Sequence record: GQ981382
Origin: Shigella phage SP18
Length of the DNA stretch: 64,000 nucleotides
Direction: 5' to 3' (one strand)
Part shown: positions 25,731 to 40,182 of the stretch, piece after piece
How the letters are laid out: each line of letters begins with the position of its first letter
How positions within the stretch are numbered: the stretch's first letter is position 1
Notes under the pieces: generated by a model
What the model was told of the DNA's origin: nothing
Database searches by the model: none
What the model saw: only the letters and a program-made list of their open reading frames with translations
Position numbers and translations under genes: made by a program

Positions 25731-26030
25731 TTAGAAAGAACCAGAGCCTTTAATTGTGTTCTGGCGACCTTTATTTTCTAATTCAGAATGGTCAATTTCA
25801 TATGCTTGTGCTACACCAAAAGCCTTTTTAACTTTAGCTAAAGAACCTTTAGATGTAACAATATTAAAAGTATTACCTTTGGTAAAATCAACCAAATCCA
25901 CTTGTACACCTTGTTTACCGAGGCTTGCGACAATAGCATCAACATATTGTTGGTCTAAATTGCCCTGGACTCCAATTTGGAATGCTTTAGGAGCTTTAGC
26001 TTCTGTGATAAATTCTTGATAAGTTTTCAT
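25731..26030 (-). CDS. Internal-protein-like capsid-targeted protein (MKTYQEFITE N-terminus)
   Basis: N-terminus MKTYQEFITEAK matches the T4 IPI/IPII/IPIII capsid targeting sequence with a protease-type ITE site. Confidence 0.7.
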   Translation of the reverse strand: MKTYQEFITEAKAPKAFQIGVQGNLDQQYVDAIVASLGKQGVQVDLVDFTKGNTFNIVTSKGSLAKVKKAFGVAQAYEIDHSELENKGRQNTIKGSGSF

Positions 26031-26038
26031 TTATTCTC

Positions 26039-26078
26039 TCCAAGTTGATGGGATAATTATGCACTATCCCATCAAAAA
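26039..26078 (-). promoter_or_regulatory. Early-promoter/stem-loop cassette (PeSL-like)
   Basis: 9-bp inverted repeat gatgggata/tatcccatc with minus-sense TATAAT-like loop. Confidence 0.45.
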
Positions 26079-26086
26079 GTAAACAG

Positions 26087-26350
26087 TTATGCTTTACCGC
26101 CAGAAACAATACCAAAGGTCTCAAAGTCCCATTCAATATCGTCAACATCAACTTTCTTACCAGCAACCACGAATGCGATTTCGCGACGTTTTGCATAGGT
26201 GACAATTTCTTTACCGTCACCACCAAAGAAAGAATAACCATTGCGCTTCATGGTGCCAAAGTCTTCAGCATCACCAGCAAACGCGCGGACTTTAAAGGAA
26301 CCGGCAGGAGCTTTAGTAGATTCAGTAATAAATTCTTGATAAGTTTTCAT
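26087..26350 (-). CDS. Internal-protein-like capsid-targeted protein
   Basis: N-terminus MKTYQEFITESTKA. Confidence 0.7.
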   Translation of the reverse strand: MKTYQEFITESTKAPAGSFKVRAFAGDAEDFGTMKRNGYSFFGGDGKEIVTYAKRREIAFVVAGKKVDVDDIEWDFETFGIVSGGKA

Positions 26351-26363
26351 AATGTCTCTTTAA

Positions 26364-26678
26364 TTACTCTTTAGGGAAATCGCGCAAAAACGCATCATAA
26401 AGTTTATTACCAATGCGACGGAATGCTTTTGCCGCATGAACGTTATCCGGATTTGCAATTTTAATTTGCATTACATGACTACCGGCCCATGATTTGGCTT
26501 CATCATAATAGCCTTTAATTTCTTTAATAGTCTTACGTTTTCCGCCAGGACCATCAACAGTAATTTTCCACGAACCGGTGCTTGTTTCACTTGGTGGGGT
26601 TAATTGTTCAATCCAGACATAACCGCCTTCAACACGTTTTTGGGTAGATTCAGTAATAAATTCTTGATAAGTTTTCAT
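26364..26678 (-). CDS. Internal-protein-like capsid-targeted protein
   Basis: Start moved to internal Met giving MKTYQEFITESTQ; conserved leader DNA cagtaataaattcttgataagttttcat. Confidence 0.65.
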   Translation of the reverse strand: MKTYQEFITESTQKRVEGGYVWIEQLTPPSETSTGSWKITVDGPGGKRKTIKEIKGYYDEAKSWAGSHVMQIKIANPDNVHAAKAFRRIGNKLYDAFLRDFPKE

Positions 26679-26726
26679 TTTATATTCCATTGTTTGGTTG
26701 ATAAAATCATTATACAACCTTTTTAG

Positions 26727-29969: not shown

Positions 29970-30929
29970 TTATTTTGTGAAAGGACGAATTAAATGTTGG
30001 TTAGCCTTAAAGCGTTTAACATAGTCTTCGCGCCCCAGGGTGTTGTACATATTAACCACTTCCTGGTAATGTTCCCAGGCATACTCACGGAACCATCCAG
30101 ACGTAATGGAGGTGCAGACTTTTTCCAGCGCAATATGGAAGCTCACAGATGGAGAGATATTGAACTCATTAGGAACCTGCGAACGCTCCAGAGCGAGCAC
30201 ACATGCTTCTTCATAAACCCCTGCCAGTTTAATAACATCAGGGAGCGCTTCAAATTTTTCACGCGAGGTCATGACTTCTGAATCATCCTTCATATAGAAC
30301 TTATATGCAGGCTTATCAGCAAGCGCCACGGCCTCGTGGATGGAGTCATGGTCAAGGGTATAGATTGTATCATTAAAGAAAGTTTTCTTGCCCACGTCTA
30401 GTTTAGGGTGACTGTATGACAGTGTTTCTGTCTGACGATGCAGCATGATTTTCTGCAGTTCATCATTAAGAACAATACCCTTATTGCGAAGGTAATTAAT
30501 ATGACTCATGGTCTTCAGGAAGAATGGATTGTTCTTCAGGTAACGATGAGACAATTTGATTGCCAAACAAATATCAGGGGTCGCCCAGTAAAAACCAGAT
30601 AGACGGTCTCTCTGAATATTTGCCTTCGCATATTTGAGCAGACGATAACTGGAGGTAAAATCTTCGTCTTGAAGCTCATCAGTCAACTCACGAACACTTG
30701 TCAGTGCGCGGACGATGTACGCTTCAAAATAGGTTTCTTTACCATTGTGCATACATTTAAAAGCTTGAACATCTGGGTTATCCACATGCACGTGCTGCCC
30801 CATCATCTGGGTTTTAAAACTGTTCCAAGAACCCTGGTCAGCGATAAAGTCCCAATCAGAGTTTTCAATTTTCTGACTTTCAATCAGACCAGCGTTATGT
30901 AATGCACGAGAACCAATAACTAACATCAT
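29970..30929 (-). CDS. Hypothetical protein (319 aa), possible nucleotidyltransferase-like N-terminus
   Basis: N-terminal VIGSRAL...SDWDF loosely resembles GS...DxD; otherwise unrecognised. Confidence 0.5.
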   Translation of the reverse strand: MMLVIGSRALHNAGLIESQKIENSDWDFIADQGSWNSFKTQMMGQHVHVDNPDVQAFKCMHNGKETYFEAYIVRALTSVRELTDELQDEDFTSSYRLLKYAKANIQRDRLSGFYWATPDICLAIKLSHRYLKNNPFFLKTMSHINYLRNKGIVLNDELQKIMLHRQTETLSYSHPKLDVGKKTFFNDTIYTLDHDSIHEAVALADKPAYKFYMKDDSEVMTSREKFEALPDVIKLAGVYEEACVLALERSQVPNEFNISPSVSFHIALEKVCTSITSGWFREYAWEHYQEVVNMYNTLGREDYVKRFKANQHLIRPFTK

Positions 30930-30942
30930 AATATTTTCCTCA

Positions 30943-31110
30943 TTAGTAAAGACGAGTTACTTCATATTTTCCAAGTGCCGATTTTTTCGCTTCAATTCGT
31001 GAGGCAGCAAGATTGGCGGCCTCTAGTGAAGAAAATTGAACCACTTGAGAAGTATTCTGTCTTACTCCGCCTTGCGGGTGAGTGACAAAAACAATAAGAA
31101 CATTATACAT
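30943..31110 (-). CDS. Small hypothetical protein (about 55 aa)
   Basis: Hand-translated MYNVLIVFVTHPQGG...; coordinates approximate. Confidence 0.3.
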   Translation of the reverse strand: MYNVLIVFVTHPQGGVRQNTSQVVQFSSLEAANLAASRIEAKKSALGKYEVTRLY

Positions 31111-31120
31111 AATATTTTCC

Positions 31121-31321
31121 TCAAATAATACCGTATGCGTAAATATCTTTTTTAATGCAGGAAACTACTTCTTCCAGAGAATCACAAACACGTTCTGTGA
31201 CGCCTGCGTAATCACCACTGATGGTTACTTTAATGCCATCAGAAACTTCCTGGAGATTAACCTCCAGTTGGTTGACTTTGGCTTCGTTCAGAACTTTGAT
31301 TAATTCGTTTGCGATAGACAT
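31121..31321 (-). CDS. Hypothetical protein (66 aa)
   Basis: ORF track. Confidence 0.4.
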   Translation of the reverse strand: MSIANELIKVLNEAKVNQLEVNLQEVSDGIKVTISGDYAGVTERVCDSLEEVVSCIKKDIYAYGII

Positions 31322-31385: not shown

Positions 31386-31730
31386 TTAGACTTGTATACT
31401 GCTTCTACAATATTCTAAAAATAATTTATCGTTGTCTACCTTATCCCAACGACGACAAGATGGATTCCAGACCAGAGCGTTGTCACCACAACCATTGAGT
31501 TTAAAATGGTCGTAGTACATAACTATATGCCTGGTTTCGTCACTGGAGAACCCCGGTATAGGTTCTCCGTGGGTGTGATACCTATGATGATGCATTGAGA
31601 GGTCGCATTTGTAAAACATCTCACGTTTACCGCGAACGAACAAGAAAGCTTGCCCATTCATATAGAATTCTTTATCTGTTTTCAAAAGATATTTGAATAC
31701 CGAATCTTTATGCATAATTCCTCCTACCAC
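31386..31730 (-). CDS. Hypothetical His/Cys-containing protein (114 aa)
   Basis: ORF track. Confidence 0.45.
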   Translation of the reverse strand: MVGGIMHKDSVFKYLLKTDKEFYMNGQAFLFVRGKREMFYKCDLSMHHHRYHTHGEPIPGFSSDETRHIVMYYDHFKLNGCGDNALVWNPSCRRWDKVDNDKLFLEYCRSSIQV

Positions 31731-31745
31731 ATCCTTGTGATTAAA

Positions 31746-31973
31746 TTATTTTCCTAACGAAATGCGAGTAGGTTTTTTACCGAAATATTCTTCATAGGAA
31801 CCATCTAAACGACCCGCTTTAGACCGACAATACGAATCATACTTTTTGTAATAAGTCAACTCGGTATTGTAACGTGGATGTCTATCAGCCATAATAATAC
31901 TTAACGGCCAACCTTTGGCGTAATCACGAAGACCATTTATTTTACGAATATATCTTTTCTTTAATTTTAACAT
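31746..31973 (-). CDS. Hypothetical basic protein (75 aa)
   Basis: ORF track. Confidence 0.4.
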   Translation of the reverse strand: MLKLKKRYIRKINGLRDYAKGWPLSIIMADRHPRYNTELTYYKKYDSYCRSKAGRLDGSYEEYFGKKPTRISLGK

Positions 31974-32200
31974 GAACTTGGGTACCAGATTTTACCATCG
32001 GCACTAGCAACGAAGGTGCGACCAGCTTCTTCCCCATAACAAGAGCTGTTCAACCAGTCTTCAAGACGGACTTCGCCGTCATAATCATCAAGCTCAACAC
32101 CAAAATCTTGAGCAGAAGCCATATCTTTTACTTTCTTATACAGTGCAGCCAGTTCAAGGGCGGCTTTTTCTAATTCAGCACGTTCAACAGCAGTAGTCAT
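31967..32200 (-). CDS. Small paralog family member, C-terminal ...WYPSSC
   Basis: 77 aa; ends GKIWYPSSC; one of five tandem paralogs. Confidence 0.5.
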   Translation of the reverse strand: MTTAVERAELEKAALELAALYKKVKDMASAQDFGVELDDYDGEVRLEDWLNSSCYGEEAGRTFVASADGKIWYPSSC

Positions 32201-32209
32201 TTTATCACC

Positions 32210-32437
32210 TTAGCAAGACATAGAGGAGTTAAACCAGAAACCTTTACCATCTGGGATACCGTAATCACCACGAATCCAGTCATACTCTTCGTATTCTGGA
32301 CAACCCGCAGGAATATATCGTTGAAGACTGTCAGCATACACATGAAAGTATTCACCAGTTTTATCGGCCAGTTGTTCACCTTCACAGATTAGTGCACGGA
32401 TTTGGTCTTCAATTTCTTTAACAGTTTTAGCAGTCAT
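32210..32437 (-). CDS. Small paralog family member, C-terminal ...FWFNSSMSC
   Basis: 75 aa; ends GKGFWFNSSMSC. Confidence 0.5.
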   Translation of the reverse strand: MTAKTVKEIEDQIRALICEGEQLADKTGEYFHVYADSLQRYIPAGCPEYEEYDWIRGDYGIPDGKGFWFNSSMSC

Positions 32438-32446
32438 TTTATTTCC

Positions 32447-32644
32447 TTAGCATTCATAAGAGGAGGACACCCAGGAGCCACCCGTAATTGTAATACAGCC
32501 ATTGTAAATCGTGATATGACGGTCCAGATGGTTTTCACCTTCGATATAGATGTCGGCTTCTTCACGTTCTTCTTTACAAATCTGGATAACGTTTTCAATA
32601 GCTGCCGCGGCAGTACGGATTGCACAATCTAATTCACGAGACAT
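32447..32644 (-). CDS. Small paralog family member, C-terminal ...WVSSSYEC
   Basis: 65 aa; ends GGSWVSSSYEC. Confidence 0.5.
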   Translation of the reverse strand: MSRELDCAIRTAAAAIENVIQICKEEREEADIYIEGENHLDRHITIYNGCITITGGSWVSSSYEC

Positions 32645-32653
32645 AATAATTCC

Positions 32654-32935
32654 TTAACATTCAGAAGAGGAGGACACCCAACCACCTTTTTCCAGGTCAG
32701 TTGTATAGTCATGAGTATTAACAATAGCCCATTCAGGATGACCATGTTCTTCCCAATGGGCAAGGTCTGCTTTCAGGGCGCCAGGAGAATAATAGTCACC
32801 GCCCATACCGCGAGCAGGGTATATATTAAAATGAGTCTCATATTTGTCTGCAATTTCCTCGGCACGACGAATAGCTTTATGGATGTCATTTACTGCGTTA
32901 GCCAGTTCTTTATTTTTACGGTAATCATTCATCAT
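32654..32935 (-). CDS. Small paralog family member, C-terminal ...WVSSSSEC
   Basis: 93 aa; ends KGGWVSSSSEC. Confidence 0.5.
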   Translation of the reverse strand: MMNDYRKNKELANAVNDIHKAIRRAEEIADKYETHFNIYPARGMGGDYYSPGALKADLAHWEEHGHPEWAIVNTHDYTTDLEKGGWVSSSSEC

Positions 32936-32944
32936 AACGTTTCC

Positions 32945-33235
32945 TTAGCACATTGCCGAAGAGGAGACCCAAGCACCAACTGTAACGACACCGTTTTCAA
33001 CTTCACCGCCGTTGTTTTCAATTTCATTTTTAAACCACTGGGAGCATTCATAACCGACAGGATAATATGTACGGCCCGAACCATAATCACCGGTACCAAA
33101 TTGGATACCATATTCATCTGCGATTTCTTCACAGTGTTTTTCAATTTCAGAGGTCTTATTTAGAAGAGAATAGATAGCTTTTTCTGCAGATTTCTCATCA
33201 TAATACTTGGGGATAGCAATTTCAATTTTATTCAT
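32945..33235 (-). CDS. Small paralog family member, C-terminal ...WVSSSAMC
   Basis: 96 aa; ends VGAWVSSSAMC. Confidence 0.5.
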   Translation of the reverse strand: MNKIEIAIPKYYDEKSAEKAIYSLLNKTSEIEKHCEEIADEYGIQFGTGDYGSGRTYYPVGYECSQWFKNEIENNGGEVENGVVTVGAWVSSSAMC

Positions 33236-33585
33236 GATTTACATTCCTTAATAAAGGTTTCAAGTTCATTGCGTTTTGTTTTGTCTAGGAACTTATTATA
33301 CTCAGCCATTGCTGAAGCATATCTCTTCCGACTAGGAGCATTCACGGCATTTGTGTGACAGATATCATACACAACAGGGATAAAATAAGACACAACAGCC
33401 GGAGCGATTATCATAAAGAAGCCCATCTCAATAGGCATCACTCCCTCGATTGCAGCCATAACCGTGGTCATTACCAGACCAACCAGGCCGCCAAGCATGG
33501 CGGTGACAATCCCTAATAATAAATTGGCACCAATATCATATTCAGCCAATTGATAAACATGTGATGCAAGACTAGGCCGTTCCAT
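33232..33585 (-). CDS. Membrane protein with C-terminal FIKEC motif
   Basis: Start moved to the MERPSLASHV Met; hydrophobic helices; C-terminal ETFIKECKS. Confidence 0.45.
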   Translation of the reverse strand: MERPSLASHVYQLAEYDIGANLLLGIVTAMLGGLVGLVMTTVMAAIEGVMPIEMGFFMIIAPAVVSYFIPVVYDICHTNAVNAPSRKRYASAMAEYNKFLDKTKRNELETFIKECKS

Positions 33586-33967
33586 TACGAACCTCCTTAA
33601 TAAATTCTTCGGCGCATTTAATTTTGTGCTCTTCTTGTAGGGAAACACATTTTTGTTCCCACTCTTTAACTCGTCCACGATATCCTTTATTCATATGATT
33701 TTGATGCCACACATTTATCAATATCATACACAGGACCGTAATAAAAGGAGCTGCAATTACTAGCGTCCAGGCGACTCCAACACTAATGATATTCATATCC
33801 CCACAAAGCACCATCATTATAACCCCAACGATGCACATGGACAGAGCCCCAAATGGAGGCATAAGGTCTTTATCAATCTTGTCCGCGTACACAAATTTTT
33901 CTGGTTTACTTGGCAGATATAACGTTCGCATTTTGAACCCCTTTAGCATATTCACGACATTCAGCAA
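33572..33967 (-). CDS. Membrane protein (131 aa; start uncertain)
   Basis: Two hydrophobic helices; C-terminal EEFIKEV. Confidence 0.45.
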   Translation of the reverse strand: MLNVVNMLKGFKMRTLYLPSKPEKFVYADKIDKDLMPPFGALSMCIVGVIMMVLCGDMNIISVGVAWTLVIAAPFITVLCMILINVWHQNHMNKGYRGRVKEWEQKCVSLQEEHKIKCAEEFIKEVRNGTA

Positions 33968-34460
33968 TAAAACGATTAAGCTTACGTTTCCGTTTACGAC
34001 TCTCTAATGTGTACTCAGCCGCCAAATCAAGAAGCTCATCTTTATCATAATTTTTAATATCAGTATAAGTTGGACGACGGTCAACCATTCCAAAGTGGTC
34101 ACCATTTTCTAACATCAAATAACATACCAAATGGTCATCATCATCCGCATTAATAAGTTGTTTATAATCGCTAGGGTCGTTTAAAGCATATACTGAATAA
34201 CTCAGCCCAGCGAATTCCACTCGTTGAATACCCAGATTTACGTCAATAATTTCCAGGGCATCTGTGAAAGAAAGGTCTTCAGCTAAAGCAAAAATAAAAG
34301 GCAATTTTGTAGTATCACCGCGGCTAGTTGTTCTTCTTAAGAAATCATTGGAATAACCCAAGTCACCGCGGATTCTATAAAGAACTGTGTTAGTTTCAGT
34401 GGCAAGACCACTACCGCCAAACCAGTCTACATTTGATAGAAGGTCAGTATATAAGCTCAT
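33906..34460 (-). CDS. Hypothetical protein with C-terminal FIAEC motif
   Basis: Start at the MSLYTDLL Met (ATG 34460); C-terminal RKRKRKLNRFIAECRE. Confidence 0.5.
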   Translation of the reverse strand: MSLYTDLLSNVDWFGGSGLATETNTVLYRIRGDLGYSNDFLRRTTSRGDTTKLPFIFALAEDLSFTDALEIIDVNLGIQRVEFAGLSYSVYALNDPSDYKQLINADDDDHLVCYLMLENGDHFGMVDRRPTYTDIKNYDKDELLDLAAEYTLESRKRKRKLNRFIAECREYAKGVQNANVISAK

Positions 34461-34503
34461 AATATTCTCCTCTCCCAATTAGGGGGCAAAGCCCCCTTTT
34501 ATC

Positions 34504-35475: not shown

Positions 35476-35556
35476 TTTATTCTCCAGTGTTTTATTGTGT
35501 AACTCAGTATGGAATCATTATGCCTTAAAGCAGGGGGCTTGTATACCCCCTTTTTG
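35476..35556 (-). promoter_or_regulatory. Early-promoter/stem-loop cassette (PeSL-like) with gggg/cccc hairpin
   Basis: ttttattctcc...gtaactcagtatggaatcattatgcc...cagggggcttgtataccccctttttg. Confidence 0.45.
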
Positions 35557-35558
35557 AA

Positions 35559-36002
35559 TTAAATTTCAAATTCTTTGCGGAAGTTGGAAGCATAAGACTG
35601 AACTGATGCTTTGTTGAATCCAAACTCACGCACAATCATATCAATAACAGCCCTACGAGCGGCACCATTAGACATATTGACAGTTTTGAACATATCATAG
35701 CATAAATCTTTGTTGCTCATACCGGAGCGTTTAGGTGTCTTACGTTCAGTTTTTGGTTCAGTCTTAGGAGTAGGTTTAACTTCTGGTTTAACCTGTCCAT
35801 CATTCAGACCTTTAAAAATTTTACCTGCCAGAGTTGCCAGTTTAGCAGCTTCGCCACGAGTGATACCAAATACTGCCGGGTTAAATGAAATACCTTCAGC
35901 TGTCAGACGTTTAAAGAACATACGTGCGGCGGATTGTGCTTCAGCTTCAGAAGAGTTGTTTAATGCCAGTTTAACATACTTAACCAGTTTTGAAGTTTTC
36001 AT
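35559..36002 (-). CDS. Hypothetical protein, paralog A with conserved C-terminal domain (...AARRAVIDMIV...VQSYASNFRK)
   Basis: Start at the MKTSKLVKY Met; C-terminal 50 aa closely similar to the 36086-36511 product. Confidence 0.55.
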   Translation of the reverse strand: MKTSKLVKYVKLALNNSSEAEAQSAARMFFKRLTAEGISFNPAVFGITRGEAAKLATLAGKIFKGLNDGQVKPEVKPTPKTEPKTERKTPKRSGMSNKDLCYDMFKTVNMSNGAARRAVIDMIVREFGFNKASVQSYASNFRKEFEI

Positions 36003-36060
36003 TTTATTATCCCGTTTGTTTATTTGGTAACTCAATATGGGATAATTATACACTATCCCA
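36003..36060 (-). promoter_or_regulatory. Early-promoter/stem-loop cassette (PeSL-like)
   Basis: ttttattatcccgtttgtttatttggtaactcaatatgggataattatacactatccc. Confidence 0.45.
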
Positions 36061-36085: not shown

Positions 36086-36511
36086 TTATTTTTGAGCTTT
36101 GCGGAAGTTGGATGCATATGACTGAACAACAGTCTTTTTGATATCATGGGTGGTAACCAGAACATCAATCAGAGCGCGACGAGCTGCATTATCATTCATA
36201 TCAATTTCTGAAAATGCCTGGAAGCAAATGTCACGAGCGTTACCAGATTTGGACTGGATTTTTTCTTCTTTAACTTCTTCAATTGGGAATTCAATCATTT
36301 CAGCTTGGATTAATTCAATGATAGATTCTTTTGACTGTTTGGTGTTTACCTTCAGTTCAGAATTAAGGGACTTGGCGATGGCAACAATCTGGGTTGAAGT
36401 CAGATGAATAAGTGCATCTTCACGAATGCAGATTTCACATACTTCGTCAGCAACCATTTTGTTGGTGATGCGGGTAACAGAGAATGCAGAGGTCAGGGTC
36501 AGGAAGTTCAT
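36086..36511 (-). CDS. Hypothetical protein, paralog B with conserved C-terminal domain (...AARRALIDVLV...VQSYASNFRK)
   Basis: Start at the MNFLTLTSAF Met; shared C-terminal domain with paralog A. Confidence 0.55.
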   Translation of the reverse strand: MNFLTLTSAFSVTRITNKMVADEVCEICIREDALIHLTSTQIVAIAKSLNSELKVNTKQSKESIIELIQAEMIEFPIEEVKEEKIQSKSGNARDICFQAFSEIDMNDNAARRALIDVLVTTHDIKKTVVQSYASNFRKAQK

Positions 36512-36600
36512 TTTATTTCTCCAAAGTTTTGTTTGATTCAGTGTGTAACTCAGTATGGAATCATTATGCACCCGGTCAATTCGGATGTACACTACTTTTT
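36512..36600 (-). promoter_or_regulatory. Early-promoter/stem-loop cassette (PeSL-like)
   Basis: ttttatttctcc...gtgtaactcagtatggaatcattatgcac...gatgtacactac. Confidence 0.45.
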
Positions 36601-37214: not shown

Positions 37215-37290
37215 TTGGTCGAGACAGTAGGGATCGAACCTACGACCTAGGACTTAGAAGGTCCTTGCTCTTCCTTCTGAGCTATGCCTC
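37215..37290 (-). tRNA. tRNA-Arg (anticodon UCU)
   Basis: Minus-sense cloverleaf CGAGGCA...CTTCTAA...GTAGGTTCGATCCCTAC...TGTCTCGACCA; anticodon loop CU-UCU-AA. Confidence 0.8.
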
Positions 37291-37295
37291 GTAAT

Positions 37296-37369
37296 TTGCG
37301 GACACACATGGATTCGAACCATGGACCAATTGATTAACAGTCAACTGCTCTACCACTGAGCTATGCATC
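37296..37369 (-). tRNA. tRNA-Asn (anticodon GUU)
   Basis: Minus-sense GGATGCATAGCTCAGTGGTAGAGC...CTGTTAA...CATGGTTCGAATCCATG; anticodon GTT. Confidence 0.75.
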
Positions 37370-37373
37370 CAAA

Positions 37374-37448
37374 TTGGTGGCCCTTGCTGGTTTCGATCCA
37401 GCTACCTATCAGTTATGAGCTGACAGCTCTCCCATTGAGCTAAAGGGC
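37374..37448 (-). tRNA. tRNA with CAU anticodon (Met or lysidine-modified Ile)
   Basis: Minus-sense GGCCCTTTAGCTCAATGGGAGAGC...CTCATAA...GCTGGATCGAAACCAGC AAGGGCC ACCA; T-loop reads AUCGAAA. Confidence 0.75.
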
Positions 37449-37542
37449 CAATTCTATTATGAAAGGCTCTTTGAGGGAAGAACCTTTGGTAATAGAGGGT
37501 ACTTATTAATAATAACACATAACTCTTAAAGCATATTACTTG

Positions 37543-38187: not shown

Positions 38188-38466
38188 CTAAATTTTTGTA
38201 TATTGTCCAGCTTTAACTTTTTTCAGTTCACGAGGGCTTACCGCGTAAGTGAATGGAGCATTCCAGGAAGAACTGACTTTGTAACCTTTAGTCAACATCA
38301 TTGCTGAAACTTTCTTGTTATCAGGACCGTTTTCGCCTTTAACAAGAAACAACTCAAATGCGCCACCATCAACCGGTTTGGCCTTAACCATCAGATATCC
38401 TTTCAGGTCTTCCAGCATATCCGGGTGACTAATTGATTCGTTAATAAATTCTTGATAAGTTTTCAT
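38188..38466 (-). CDS. Internal-protein-like capsid-targeted protein
   Basis: N-terminus MKTYQEFINES. Confidence 0.7.
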   Translation of the reverse strand: MKTYQEFINESISHPDMLEDLKGYLMVKAKPVDGGAFELFLVKGENGPDNKKVSAMMLTKGYKVSSSWNAPFTYAVSPRELKKVKAGQYTKI

Positions 38467-38820: not shown

Positions 38821-39093
38821 CTATTTTAGATAAATTGCGTATTTTTTATAACCAGCCGTCTCATGACGGAGACCCTTGTCATTGGCAAAACGCTCAATGT
38901 TATTAATTTGGTTCTGGTCAAGTTCTGAAATGTCAAACGCGAAAAAGTTGCGTTTGTTACCAATTGTTATATGGTCAGTCAAGTCAATGCTATACAAGTG
39001 ATTGATATTGTCAATCATAGCTTTGACTGCTTTACTAATTTTTACTTCTTCGTTCAGTTGGGACTCGTTGAAAAATTCATTGAAAGTTTTCAT
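38821..39093 (-). CDS. Internal-protein-like capsid-targeted protein
   Basis: N-terminus MKTFNEFFNES; late-promoter motif TATAAATA 11 nt upstream. Confidence 0.65.
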   Translation of the reverse strand: MKTFNEFFNESQLNEEVKISKAVKAMIDNINHLYSIDLTDHITIGNKRNFFAFDISELDQNQINNIERFANDKGLRHETAGYKKYAIYLK

Positions 39094-39101
39094 AAGAAAC
39101 C

Positions 39102-39434
39102 TTATTTATAAAGTTTTGCCAGTTCTTTACGTCCACGAGCAGACATAATAAATTGTTCATCGCCAATTTTAAAATAAGCCATACCACCGTCAACAGCGAT
39201 ACCAATTTCTTTAGTACCTTCTTTGCCTTTCCACTTGCCACCAGATTTCAGGACAGCTTCAACTGCAGCTTTGGAATATTTGGACGTTTGAAAACGTTCA
39301 TTACCAATCTGAAAGAAAACACCATCTGCATTTTTGGTTAAACCAAATTTCAGAGAGCCTTCACTATCATCAATTGATTTGGTCTCATTGATGGCGGATT
39401 CGGCTAAAAACTCGTTGTAAGTTTTGACGCTCAT
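39102..39434 (-). CDS. Internal-protein-like capsid-targeted protein
   Basis: Start at internal Met giving MSVKTYNEFLAES. Confidence 0.6.
   Translation of the reverse strand: MSVKTYNEFLAESAINETKSIDDSEGSLKFGLTKNADGVFFQIGNERFQTSKYSKAAVEAVLKSGGKWKGKEGTKEIGIAVDGGMAYFKIGDEQFIMSARGRKELAKLYK
39103..39110 (-). promoter_or_regulatory. T4-type late promoter TATAAATA (minus sense)
   Basis: Plus-strand tatttata is TATAAATA in minus sense, upstream of ATG 39093. Confidence 0.5.
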
Positions 39435-39494
39435 TTTAACTCCGTTTGTTCGTTGGTGTAGGAACATATTACTGCACCTACACTCATTTGTACA

Positions 39495-40182
<688 letters not shown>

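Follow-up and report, generated by a model that had tools for sequence, protein, structure and literature searches.

Tandem small phage proteins with a conserved C-terminal Trp-Ser-Ser-Cys tail are linked to the gene of a MenT-like nucleotidyltransferase

INTRODUCTION

Nucleotidyltransferases of the MenT and AbiEii types are known as bacterial toxins and as abortive-infection effectors that disable tRNA. Polymerase beta (Pol-beta)-type nucleotidyltransferases that target a hydroxyl group on a small partner are also known (i.e., the HEPN-MNT pair MntA/HepT and GlnD/PII), and the acceptors in these systems are Tyr residues in a loop. In this study, we analyzed a 64,000-nucleotide (nt) stretch of Shigella phage SP18 DNA (sequence record GQ981382; hereafter, the window) that contains five tandem small genes, the products of which end in the same short tail. 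Downstream of these genes lies the gene of a conserved relative of the MenT enzymes, which is thus found in lytic phages.

MenT toxins work by adding nucleotides to the 3' ends of tRNAs (PMC10435456, PMC11375011), and the characterized MenT enzymes act on these ends and not on other proteins (PMC10435456). The MenT1 gene is preceded by that of MenA1, a 68-amino-acid (aa) helical antitoxin that blocks the active sites of the toxin and induces autophosphorylation of its residue T39 (PMC10435456, PMC11375011). T39 lies two residues before D41, and the C terminus of MenA1 is dispensable for antitoxicity (PMC10435456). The antitoxin of the AbiE system, AbiEi, is a large protein of the COG5340 family (PMC10435456).

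The phage module resembles MenAT1 of Mycobacterium tuberculosis in that a small helical protein is encoded directly upstream of an enzyme with the MenT fold, and it resembles AbiE (AbiEi/AbiEii, DUF1814) in the nucleotidyltransferase fold class and catalytic motif of the enzyme. However, the small phage proteins show no sequence similarity to MenA1 (Rv0078B), and up to five or six divergent paralogs accompany one enzyme in the phages, whereas MenAT1 has one antitoxin per enzyme. The extreme C terminus is the invariant element of the phage family, in contrast to the dispensable C terminus of MenA1. Unlike MenT1, the phage enzyme has no conserved Ser/Thr phosphoacceptor, and it bears an additional C-terminal helical region that is large and highly conserved; moreover, MenAT1 is encoded on a bacterial chromosome, whereas the phage module is carried by lytic phages. 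AbiE combines its large antitoxin with a role in host defense, while the phage module consists of small tail-bearing proteins and a phage-encoded enzyme. MntA/HepT and GlnD/PII provide a precedent for models in which the enzyme modifies the small proteins, although their acceptors are Tyr residues; no homology of the small phage proteins to HepT or PII was found, but no search was aimed at these partners. The lytic phage context, the multiparalog arrays, and the invariant C-terminal W-x-x-S-S-x-x-C appear to be the distinctive features relative to known combinations of a small protein and a MenT-fold enzyme.

RESULTS AND DISCUSSION

Five tandem genes with a common C-terminal tail

The array consists of five tandem open reading frames (ORFs) for proteins of 65 to 96 aa on the minus strand (Table 1); their coordinates and C-terminal ends are exactly those listed in the first-pass annotation, a model-generated reading of the DNA. 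All five ORFs lie in one frame and end in W-x-x-S-S-(x-x)-C. As that annotation also stated, the Cys is the last residue, with TAA directly following its codon in every case. A six-frame scan of the window for W..SS.{0,2}C-stop found five occurrences, all within the array, while 200 mononucleotide shuffles of the window yielded a mean of 0.075 and a maximum of 2. Copy 5 carries an internal motif copy (DWLNSSCYGEE) in addition to the terminal one.

The ATG of copy 1 overlaps the stop codon of the upstream e.3-like gene (ATGA). The remaining four genes are preceded by repeated junctions in which the tail codons are followed by TGY, TAA, GGA or GGT, 6 more nt, and ATG (i.e., a stop-to-ATG gap of 9 nt); given this layout, the stop codon and GGA together form the Shine-Dalgarno site of the next gene. 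Promoter and terminator scans revealed no enrichment, and because no terminator-like site was found inside the array, the five genes look like one polycistron. The window is that of a T4-like phage: positions 31500 to 34000 share 98.8% identity with Escherichia phage P896 (Straboviridae, Tevenvirinae, Gaprivervirus) and match 83 phage records.

Two features of the junctions were considered separately. With a single frame and only TAA plus 9 nt between ORFs, stop-codon readthrough would fuse all five products; we rejected a readthrough polyprotein, judging the shared frame to be a by-product of the 9-nt spacers, and other phages have junctions of 10 to 11 nt or overlapping ones. Pairing of UCCUCC in the tail codons with the Shine-Dalgarno site of the next gene was likewise discarded (only about 4 bp are possible, and the codons vary).

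Table 1. Features of the SP18 window and of related loci (locus handles precede positions outside the window)
Feature	Position	Strand	Remarks
Copy 1	32945-33235	-	96 aa; GDYGSGRTYYP class; tail GAWVSSSAMC; PHROG 899, E 5e-23
Copy 2	32654-32935	-	93 aa; YGMGG-YY class; tail GGWVSSSSEC; PHROG 899, E 1.9e-20
Copy 3	32447-32644	-	65 aa; tail GSWVSSSYEC; PHROG 4882, E 3.3e-36; family profile, E 5.5e-5
Copy 4	32210-32437	-	75 aa; tail GFWFNSSMSC; PHROG 899, E 3.5e-15
Copy 5	31967-32200	-	77 aa; double-motif class; terminal KIWYPSSC; PHROG 899, E 6.9e-10
Four repeated gene junctions	32195-32236, 32432-32473, 32639-32680, 32930-32971	-	42-nt direct repeat family, 64-86% identity
Four intervening small ORFs	31746-31973, 31386-31730, 31121-31321, 30943-31110	-	each matches only a PHROG of unknown function
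Partner gene	29970-30929	-	319 aa; DUF7277+DUF7275; MenT/AbiEii-like nucleotidyltransferase fold
Different small-protein family (divergent-enzyme phages)	L051 4387-4857; L052 4109-4441, 4441-4776; L053 4120-4485; L054 4453-4848		
Acb1 anti-CBASS protein	39498-39950	-	Pfam PF23474, E 1.3e-59; position of T4 gene 57B
Internal-head-protein-like clusters (two)	25731-26717, 38188-38466, 38821-39467	-	MKTYQEFITE or MKTFNEFFNE
Adjacent paralogous ORF pair	35559-36053, 36086-36592	-	no Pfam match
Three adjacent tRNA genes	37219-37449	-	Rfam RF00005, 61-72 bits
GC-rich perfect palindromic hairpin AGGGGGCAAAGCCCCCT, then T-run	34481-34497		between e.6-like and e.5-like genes

Selection on the tail at the protein level

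Among the 78 nonredundant relatives that fit the tail pattern, every one of the six Ser codons, TCN as well as AGY, occurs at the two Ser positions, while Trp and Cys are fixed. The last copy of the array retains the motif, although no family gene or gene junction comes after it. The ratios of nonsynonymous to synonymous substitution rates (dN/dS), computed over whole genes against the counterparts in phage dhaeg (Dhakavirus), were 0.12, 0.35, 0.08, 0.57, and 0.08 for copies 1 to 5, respectively; copy 4, the fastest evolving, is 53% identical to its dhaeg counterpart. These comparisons indicate that the array orthologs are under purifying selection, that the five ORFs are real, translated genes, and that selection acts on the tail motif at the level of the protein. 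The first-pass annotation had named, as one of two outcomes that would overturn its proposal, that the ORFs are untranslated and the motif is a DNA repeat read in frame by chance. We reject both readings because the Ser codons vary, the last copy keeps the motif, and dN/dS is below 1. Its view of the tail as a shared determinant agrees with the protein-level selection on proteins with varying N-terminal parts.

Linkage to a nucleotidyltransferase gene

On the same strand, 1,037 nt separate the array from the enzyme gene downstream of it. The four intervening small ORFs are lineage specific and do not belong to the conserved module; they are missing from most other loci, where the gap between the array and the enzyme gene is often only tens of bases. 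We retrieved 39 IMG/VR loci through the small-protein family (with a profile of a 13-sequence subset) and scanned them with the family hidden Markov model (HMM). Arrays of one to five same-strand copies were usual, and a DUF7277+DUF7275 protein was encoded just downstream, on the same strand, at 35 of the 39 loci. Of the four loci without the enzyme, three are contigs that end <1 kb past the array. When all neighboring ORFs were clustered, the enzyme was the only widely shared neighbor (41 of 48 loci); the next-best neighbors (14 loci) were merely T4-type syntenic genes.

The enzyme family itself comprises 2,057 homologs (E ≤1e-5), with 730 phage records, divergent versions included. In a reciprocal test, phages were picked via the enzyme alone and then inspected for adjacent tail-bearing genes, which were present in all seven (Klebsiella phage phi1_175008 [Stephanstirmvirinae], Pseudomonas phages vB_PseuGesM_254 and 16Q, Stenotrophomonas phage Marzo, Aeromonas phage phiAS4, Shigella phage SF1-1, and Acinetobacter phage Konradin). 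These seven are from lineages that differ from T4, and the small genes of Marzo lie downstream of the enzyme gene. Five other phages encode a shorter, divergent form of the enzyme (Gordonia phage Cucurbita, Mycobacterium phage prophiGD54-2, Vibrio phages K408 and PVA8, and phage DSS3_VP1), and none of them carried the tail family. Within one subfamily of the enzyme, the linkage to the tail family is nearly universal. Since the genes are adjacent across many phage lineages, the small proteins and the nucleotidyltransferase probably work together.

In four of the five divergent-enzyme phages, a different small-protein family is encoded directly downstream of the enzyme gene (Table 1), with the motifs G-I-G-x-A-T-L-V-E...G-G-E-G...Y-F...G-Y-x-x-S-Y-x-G-x-x-Y-D-G and a tandem duplicate in prophiGD54-2. 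This family suggests partner swapping within the enzyme superfamily. Of the ORFs between the SP18 array and the enzyme gene, the second in transcriptional order encodes a His/Cys-rich protein (109 to 114 aa; ..HHHRYHTHGE.. and ..NGCGDN..NPSCRRW..; phrog_9796) that may bind metal.

A widespread family without annotated function

No match above noise was obtained for the five proteins in Pfam, NCBIfam, or PADLOC. In PHROGs, copies 1, 2, 4, and 5 belong to phrog_899 and copy 3 belongs to phrog_4882, both of which lack a functional annotation; hence the statement that the motif is not a described family holds. We consider the two PHROGs to be the same family, from which the database splits off copy 3 while recording neither the tail motif nor the link to the enzyme. 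The literature search found no paper that names these ORFs, PHROG 899, or DUF7275/DUF7277 or that describes phage MenT-like modules. The family is thus catalogued in databases yet unannotated, and its pairing with the enzyme appears to be new.

A tblastn search with copy 2 matched 280 phage records, mostly Tevenvirinae of enterobacteria (RB69ORF137c included) and also one 366-kb Erwinia phage. The profile search suggested by the first-pass annotation was run exhaustively against 1.84 billion representative proteins and revealed a broad uncharacterized family of 51 clusters at 50% identity; the sizes range from 60 to 120 aa, except for one 1,929-aa protein matched through the N-terminal helix only. 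Alignment of 56 diverse members showed that three tail residues (the Trp, one Ser, and the Cys) never vary and that a Tyr and the other Ser seldom do; 78 of 91 nonredundant members end strictly in W-x-x-S-S-x(0-3)-C followed by a stop.

The family is acidic (median pI, ~4.4; median net charge, -8). Its members begin with an amphipathic helix ending in E-A-E-x-I-A-D-x-x-G-x-x-F, continue with Y-G-(M/S)-G-G-T-Y-Y-P and an acidic stretch of variable sequence around a central Trp, and end in G-x-W-[VI]-S-S-S-x-x-C. All five window proteins show the defining features (i.e., acidity, the N-terminal helix, the IAD-x-x-G-x-x-F strand, and a G-x-W-x-x-S-S-x(0-3)-C end no more than 2 residues from the stop). 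Some relatives have an unrelated extra N-terminal domain of 70 to 80 aa and a shortened middle, so that the constant module of the family consists of the helix, strand, and tail. The bodies described as divergent do vary in their N-terminal parts, but they are not unrelated, being homologous over their whole length.

The AlphaFold (AF2) model of copy 2 (predicted local distance difference test score [pLDDT], 84; predicted template modeling score [pTM], 0.72) combines one long and two short helices with a sheet of three strands, of which GGWVS is the last; its final three residues have low confidence (pLDDT, 45) and are modeled as flexible. When the family profile was compared with all PDB chains, which should include the MenA1:MenT1 crystal structure (PMC10435456), the only hits were to designed helical bundles, by way of the N-terminal helix; MenA1 was not among them. 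The idea that the tail is a lipidation-like or generic processing signal finds no support: the Cys is the last residue and not the fourth from the C terminus as in CaaX-type prenylation signals, and modifying enzymes of these kinds are not encoded nearby. In addition, the neighboring gene products scanned against Pfam include no lanthipeptide or aminovinyl-cysteine (AviCys) enzymes (i.e., no dehydratase/cyclase and no homo-oligomeric flavin-containing Cys decarboxylase domain).

The enzyme and its relation to MenT

The product of the partner gene has a Pol-beta nucleotidyltransferase fold resembling MenT structures. Residues G6, S7, D25, D27, and E69, which constitute the Pol-beta nucleotidyltransferase signature, are invariant among 22 diverse homologs, and the first four are common even to the divergent subfamily. 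The catalytic signature is followed by a K-x-S-H-R-x-x-K...K-T stretch, with a very highly conserved C-terminal helical region. The subfamily associated with the tail-bearing proteins is marked by R129, F137, T140, R148, R165, T169, P175, A208, L245, I275, S277, R281, W285, and E286. In Pfam, the enzyme matched only DUF7275 and DUF7277 at E values up to 0.1, with no match to AbiEii/DUF1814, and PADLOC gave no match. The column two residues before D25, which corresponds to the phosphoacceptor Ser/Thr of MenT, shows diverse residues (N, K, P, V, L, M, C, Q, and others). Because no AbiEii model matches and no Ser/Thr is conserved there, we class the enzyme as MenT-like in fold and not as a member of that family.

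A direct comparison of the enzyme sequence with the PDB gave RNase L as the best match (E, 0.31), which was rejected as noise. A Cys-Cys link between the tail and C243 or C272 of the enzyme was also rejected; C243 is replaced by Tyr in Marzo, which carries the tail family, and neither Cys is specific to the subfamily.

Age of the paralogs

Each copy matches its counterpart in other phage genera or families with scores of 53 to 108 bits and its neighbors in the window with only 16 to 28 bits. The counterparts occur in phages such as RB69, Klebsiella phage PhiKpNIH-6, Aeromonas phage phiAS4, Stephanstirmvirinae phage phi1_175008, and Erwinia phage Kaldavass. Copy 1 has counterparts at 53 to 67 bits in phiAS4, SF1-1, and phi1_175008, and the double-motif class of copy 5 is also found in at least four distant phages, namely, these three and PhiKpNIH-6. 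Because the cross-genus scores exceed the neighbor scores and in view of the dN/dS values, we conclude that the paralogs are ancient and represent long-maintained, subfunctionalized classes. The expectation that they are rapidly evolving is therefore contradicted.

The copy number varies, with four copies in RZ, three in RB69, and none between e.2 and e.3 in T4. The RB69 counterpart of copy 1 (L004, 2679-2985) is split into ORF139c, the N-terminal part, which ends in ..VSQWYEK, and ORF138c, which carries ..EGAWVSSPALC; the unsplit form is present in Shigella phage phi25-307. The split looks like a frameshift, in the form of a pseudogene, a sequencing error, or a laboratory-strain mutation.

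Possible roles of the tail

We favor a reading in which the small proteins are partner subunits of the enzyme and the tail is their shared engagement determinant, with the proteins serving as regulators or adaptors; for this joint claim, we put the likelihood at somewhat less than even. The invariant tail and helix would dock on or into the equally conserved enzyme, and the variable heads would give each paralog a different input or target. The regulator or adaptor role is preferred because of the analogy with MenA1: the small proteins may control the enzyme as MenA1 controls the tRNA-modifying MenT1, although the direction of regulation is itself conjectural. The addition of a variable 70- to 80-aa domain to the constant helix-strand-tail module in some relatives is an adaptor-like build. 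The earlier suggestion of a partner-binding or modification determinant is thus likely to be right, through the conserved MenT-like enzyme, but the partner would be phage encoded and not necessarily a host component. Several observations weigh against the subunit reading. One locus (L030) has a family member and no nucleotidyltransferase within 8 kb, making it the single true exception to the linkage. The analogy with MenA1 is incomplete, since the part that is dispensable in that antitoxin is the most conserved part here, and it would be unusual for a lytic phage to maintain as many as five or six distinct "antitoxins" against a single enzyme. Furthermore, the Trp and the first motif residues are modeled in a beta-strand, so the conservation may in part have a purely structural basis. 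This last point could be extended to the whole tail, as a folding, oligomerization, or metal/disulfide element without a role in recognition. GGWVS is modeled as the third sheet strand with good confidence, and the second, internal W-x-S-S-x-C of several members hints at an internal duplication with paired Cys residues. Nevertheless, copy 2, with its single Cys, shows that an intramolecular pair is not needed, the final S-x-x-C never varies even though it is modeled as disordered, and a purely structural element would not predict strict co-occurrence with one enzyme subfamily; we consider this explanation improbable. Still further from the data is the notion that the ORFs are untranslated and carry a DNA repeat or coupling signal in frame, or that they encode precursors resembling ribosomally synthesized and posttranslationally modified peptides (lanthionine/AviCys type). 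The 42-nt junction repeat does exist, the stop codon and GGA double as the ribosome-binding site of the next gene, and S-x-x-C near a C-terminal Cys is superficially like what we take to be lanthipeptide/AviCys motifs. However, the Ser codons span both codon families with W, S, S, and C fixed, the last copy has no following junction, dN/dS is below 1 over whole genes, copy 2 has a confident folded model, and the ORFs encode domains of 65 to 96 aa; Lan-type and flavoprotein decarboxylase domains are absent from the neighboring products scanned against Pfam. The Ser codon usage and dN/dS values effectively refute this account, and we assign it only a marginal probability.

The main rival reading, with which the genomic linkage is equally compatible, is that the small proteins are substrates, in which case the enzyme would nucleotidylylate or phosphorylate the exposed Ser-Ser or the terminal Cys and the modified proteins would act on different targets. 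The last tail residues are modeled as flexible, the hydroxyl acceptors are invariant, and the fold is one that transfers to hydroxyls. MenT toxins phosphorylate an active-site Ser/Thr (PMC11375011), and since the phage enzyme has no conserved Ser/Thr two residues before D25, an acceptor in trans is conceivable. On the other hand, a substrate role would not explain why the Trp and the last Cys vary as little as the serines do, and the characterized MenT enzymes target tRNA and not proteins; we therefore regard the substrate role as possible and rather unlikely. Alternatively, the tail might bind a conserved host component, such as a translation or defense factor, independently of the enzyme, with the adjacency reflecting only a shared pathway or coregulation. 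The acidity of the family is typical of nucleic-acid mimics and phage early host-takeover proteins, the array lies in a plastic accessory region missing from T4, and the Acb1 and internal-protein genes occur in the same window. Yet the family tracks one enzyme subfamily across phages of Escherichia, Pseudomonas, Stenotrophomonas, Acinetobacter, and Aeromonas and is absent with the divergent enzyme, and no other gene emerged as co-conserved from the neighbor clustering. A host target of this kind seems unlikely to us.

A bolder proposal is that the tail is a covalent acceptor or an active-site plug for the phage MenT-like enzyme, which would make the locus an undescribed system of one enzyme and multiple paralogs in hundreds of lytic phages, including RB69. 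One toxin-type enzyme would then nucleotidylylate, phosphorylate, or be gated by the small proteins, and the different heads would direct its activity to different host targets, for example, tRNAs or defense proteins. We hold this proposal to be doubtful, at about the same level as the substrate role. With the linkage described here, proteins so far labeled "hypothetical" become part of a defined module of two components, and the presence of the enzyme in lytic phages suggests that phages may use MenT-type chemistry for host takeover or counterdefense under a new kind of control.

Other features of the window and related loci

Besides the Acb1 gene, the window contains at least six small genes for diverse paralogs with MKTYQEFITE or MKTFNEFFNE, some at the listed start and others a few residues in; we take this sequence to be the capsid-targeting sequence of T4 internal proteins. 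The T4 internal head protein signature MKTYQEFI..E is absent from the N termini of all five array proteins. The adjacent ORF pair without a Pfam match has divergent N-terminal halves and near-identical C-terminal ends (..AARRA(V/L)ID..V(Q)SYASNFRK..), representing another case of variable heads with a constant tail. The palindromic hairpin listed in Table 1 has a similar counterpart at positions 35532 to 35551, and both are terminator-like in the scan. The three tRNA genes lie at a distance of about 4 kb upstream of the SP18 array; in Pseudomonas phage vB_PseuGesM_254, a tRNA-Arg gene (L049, 597-669) directly precedes the first gene of the family.

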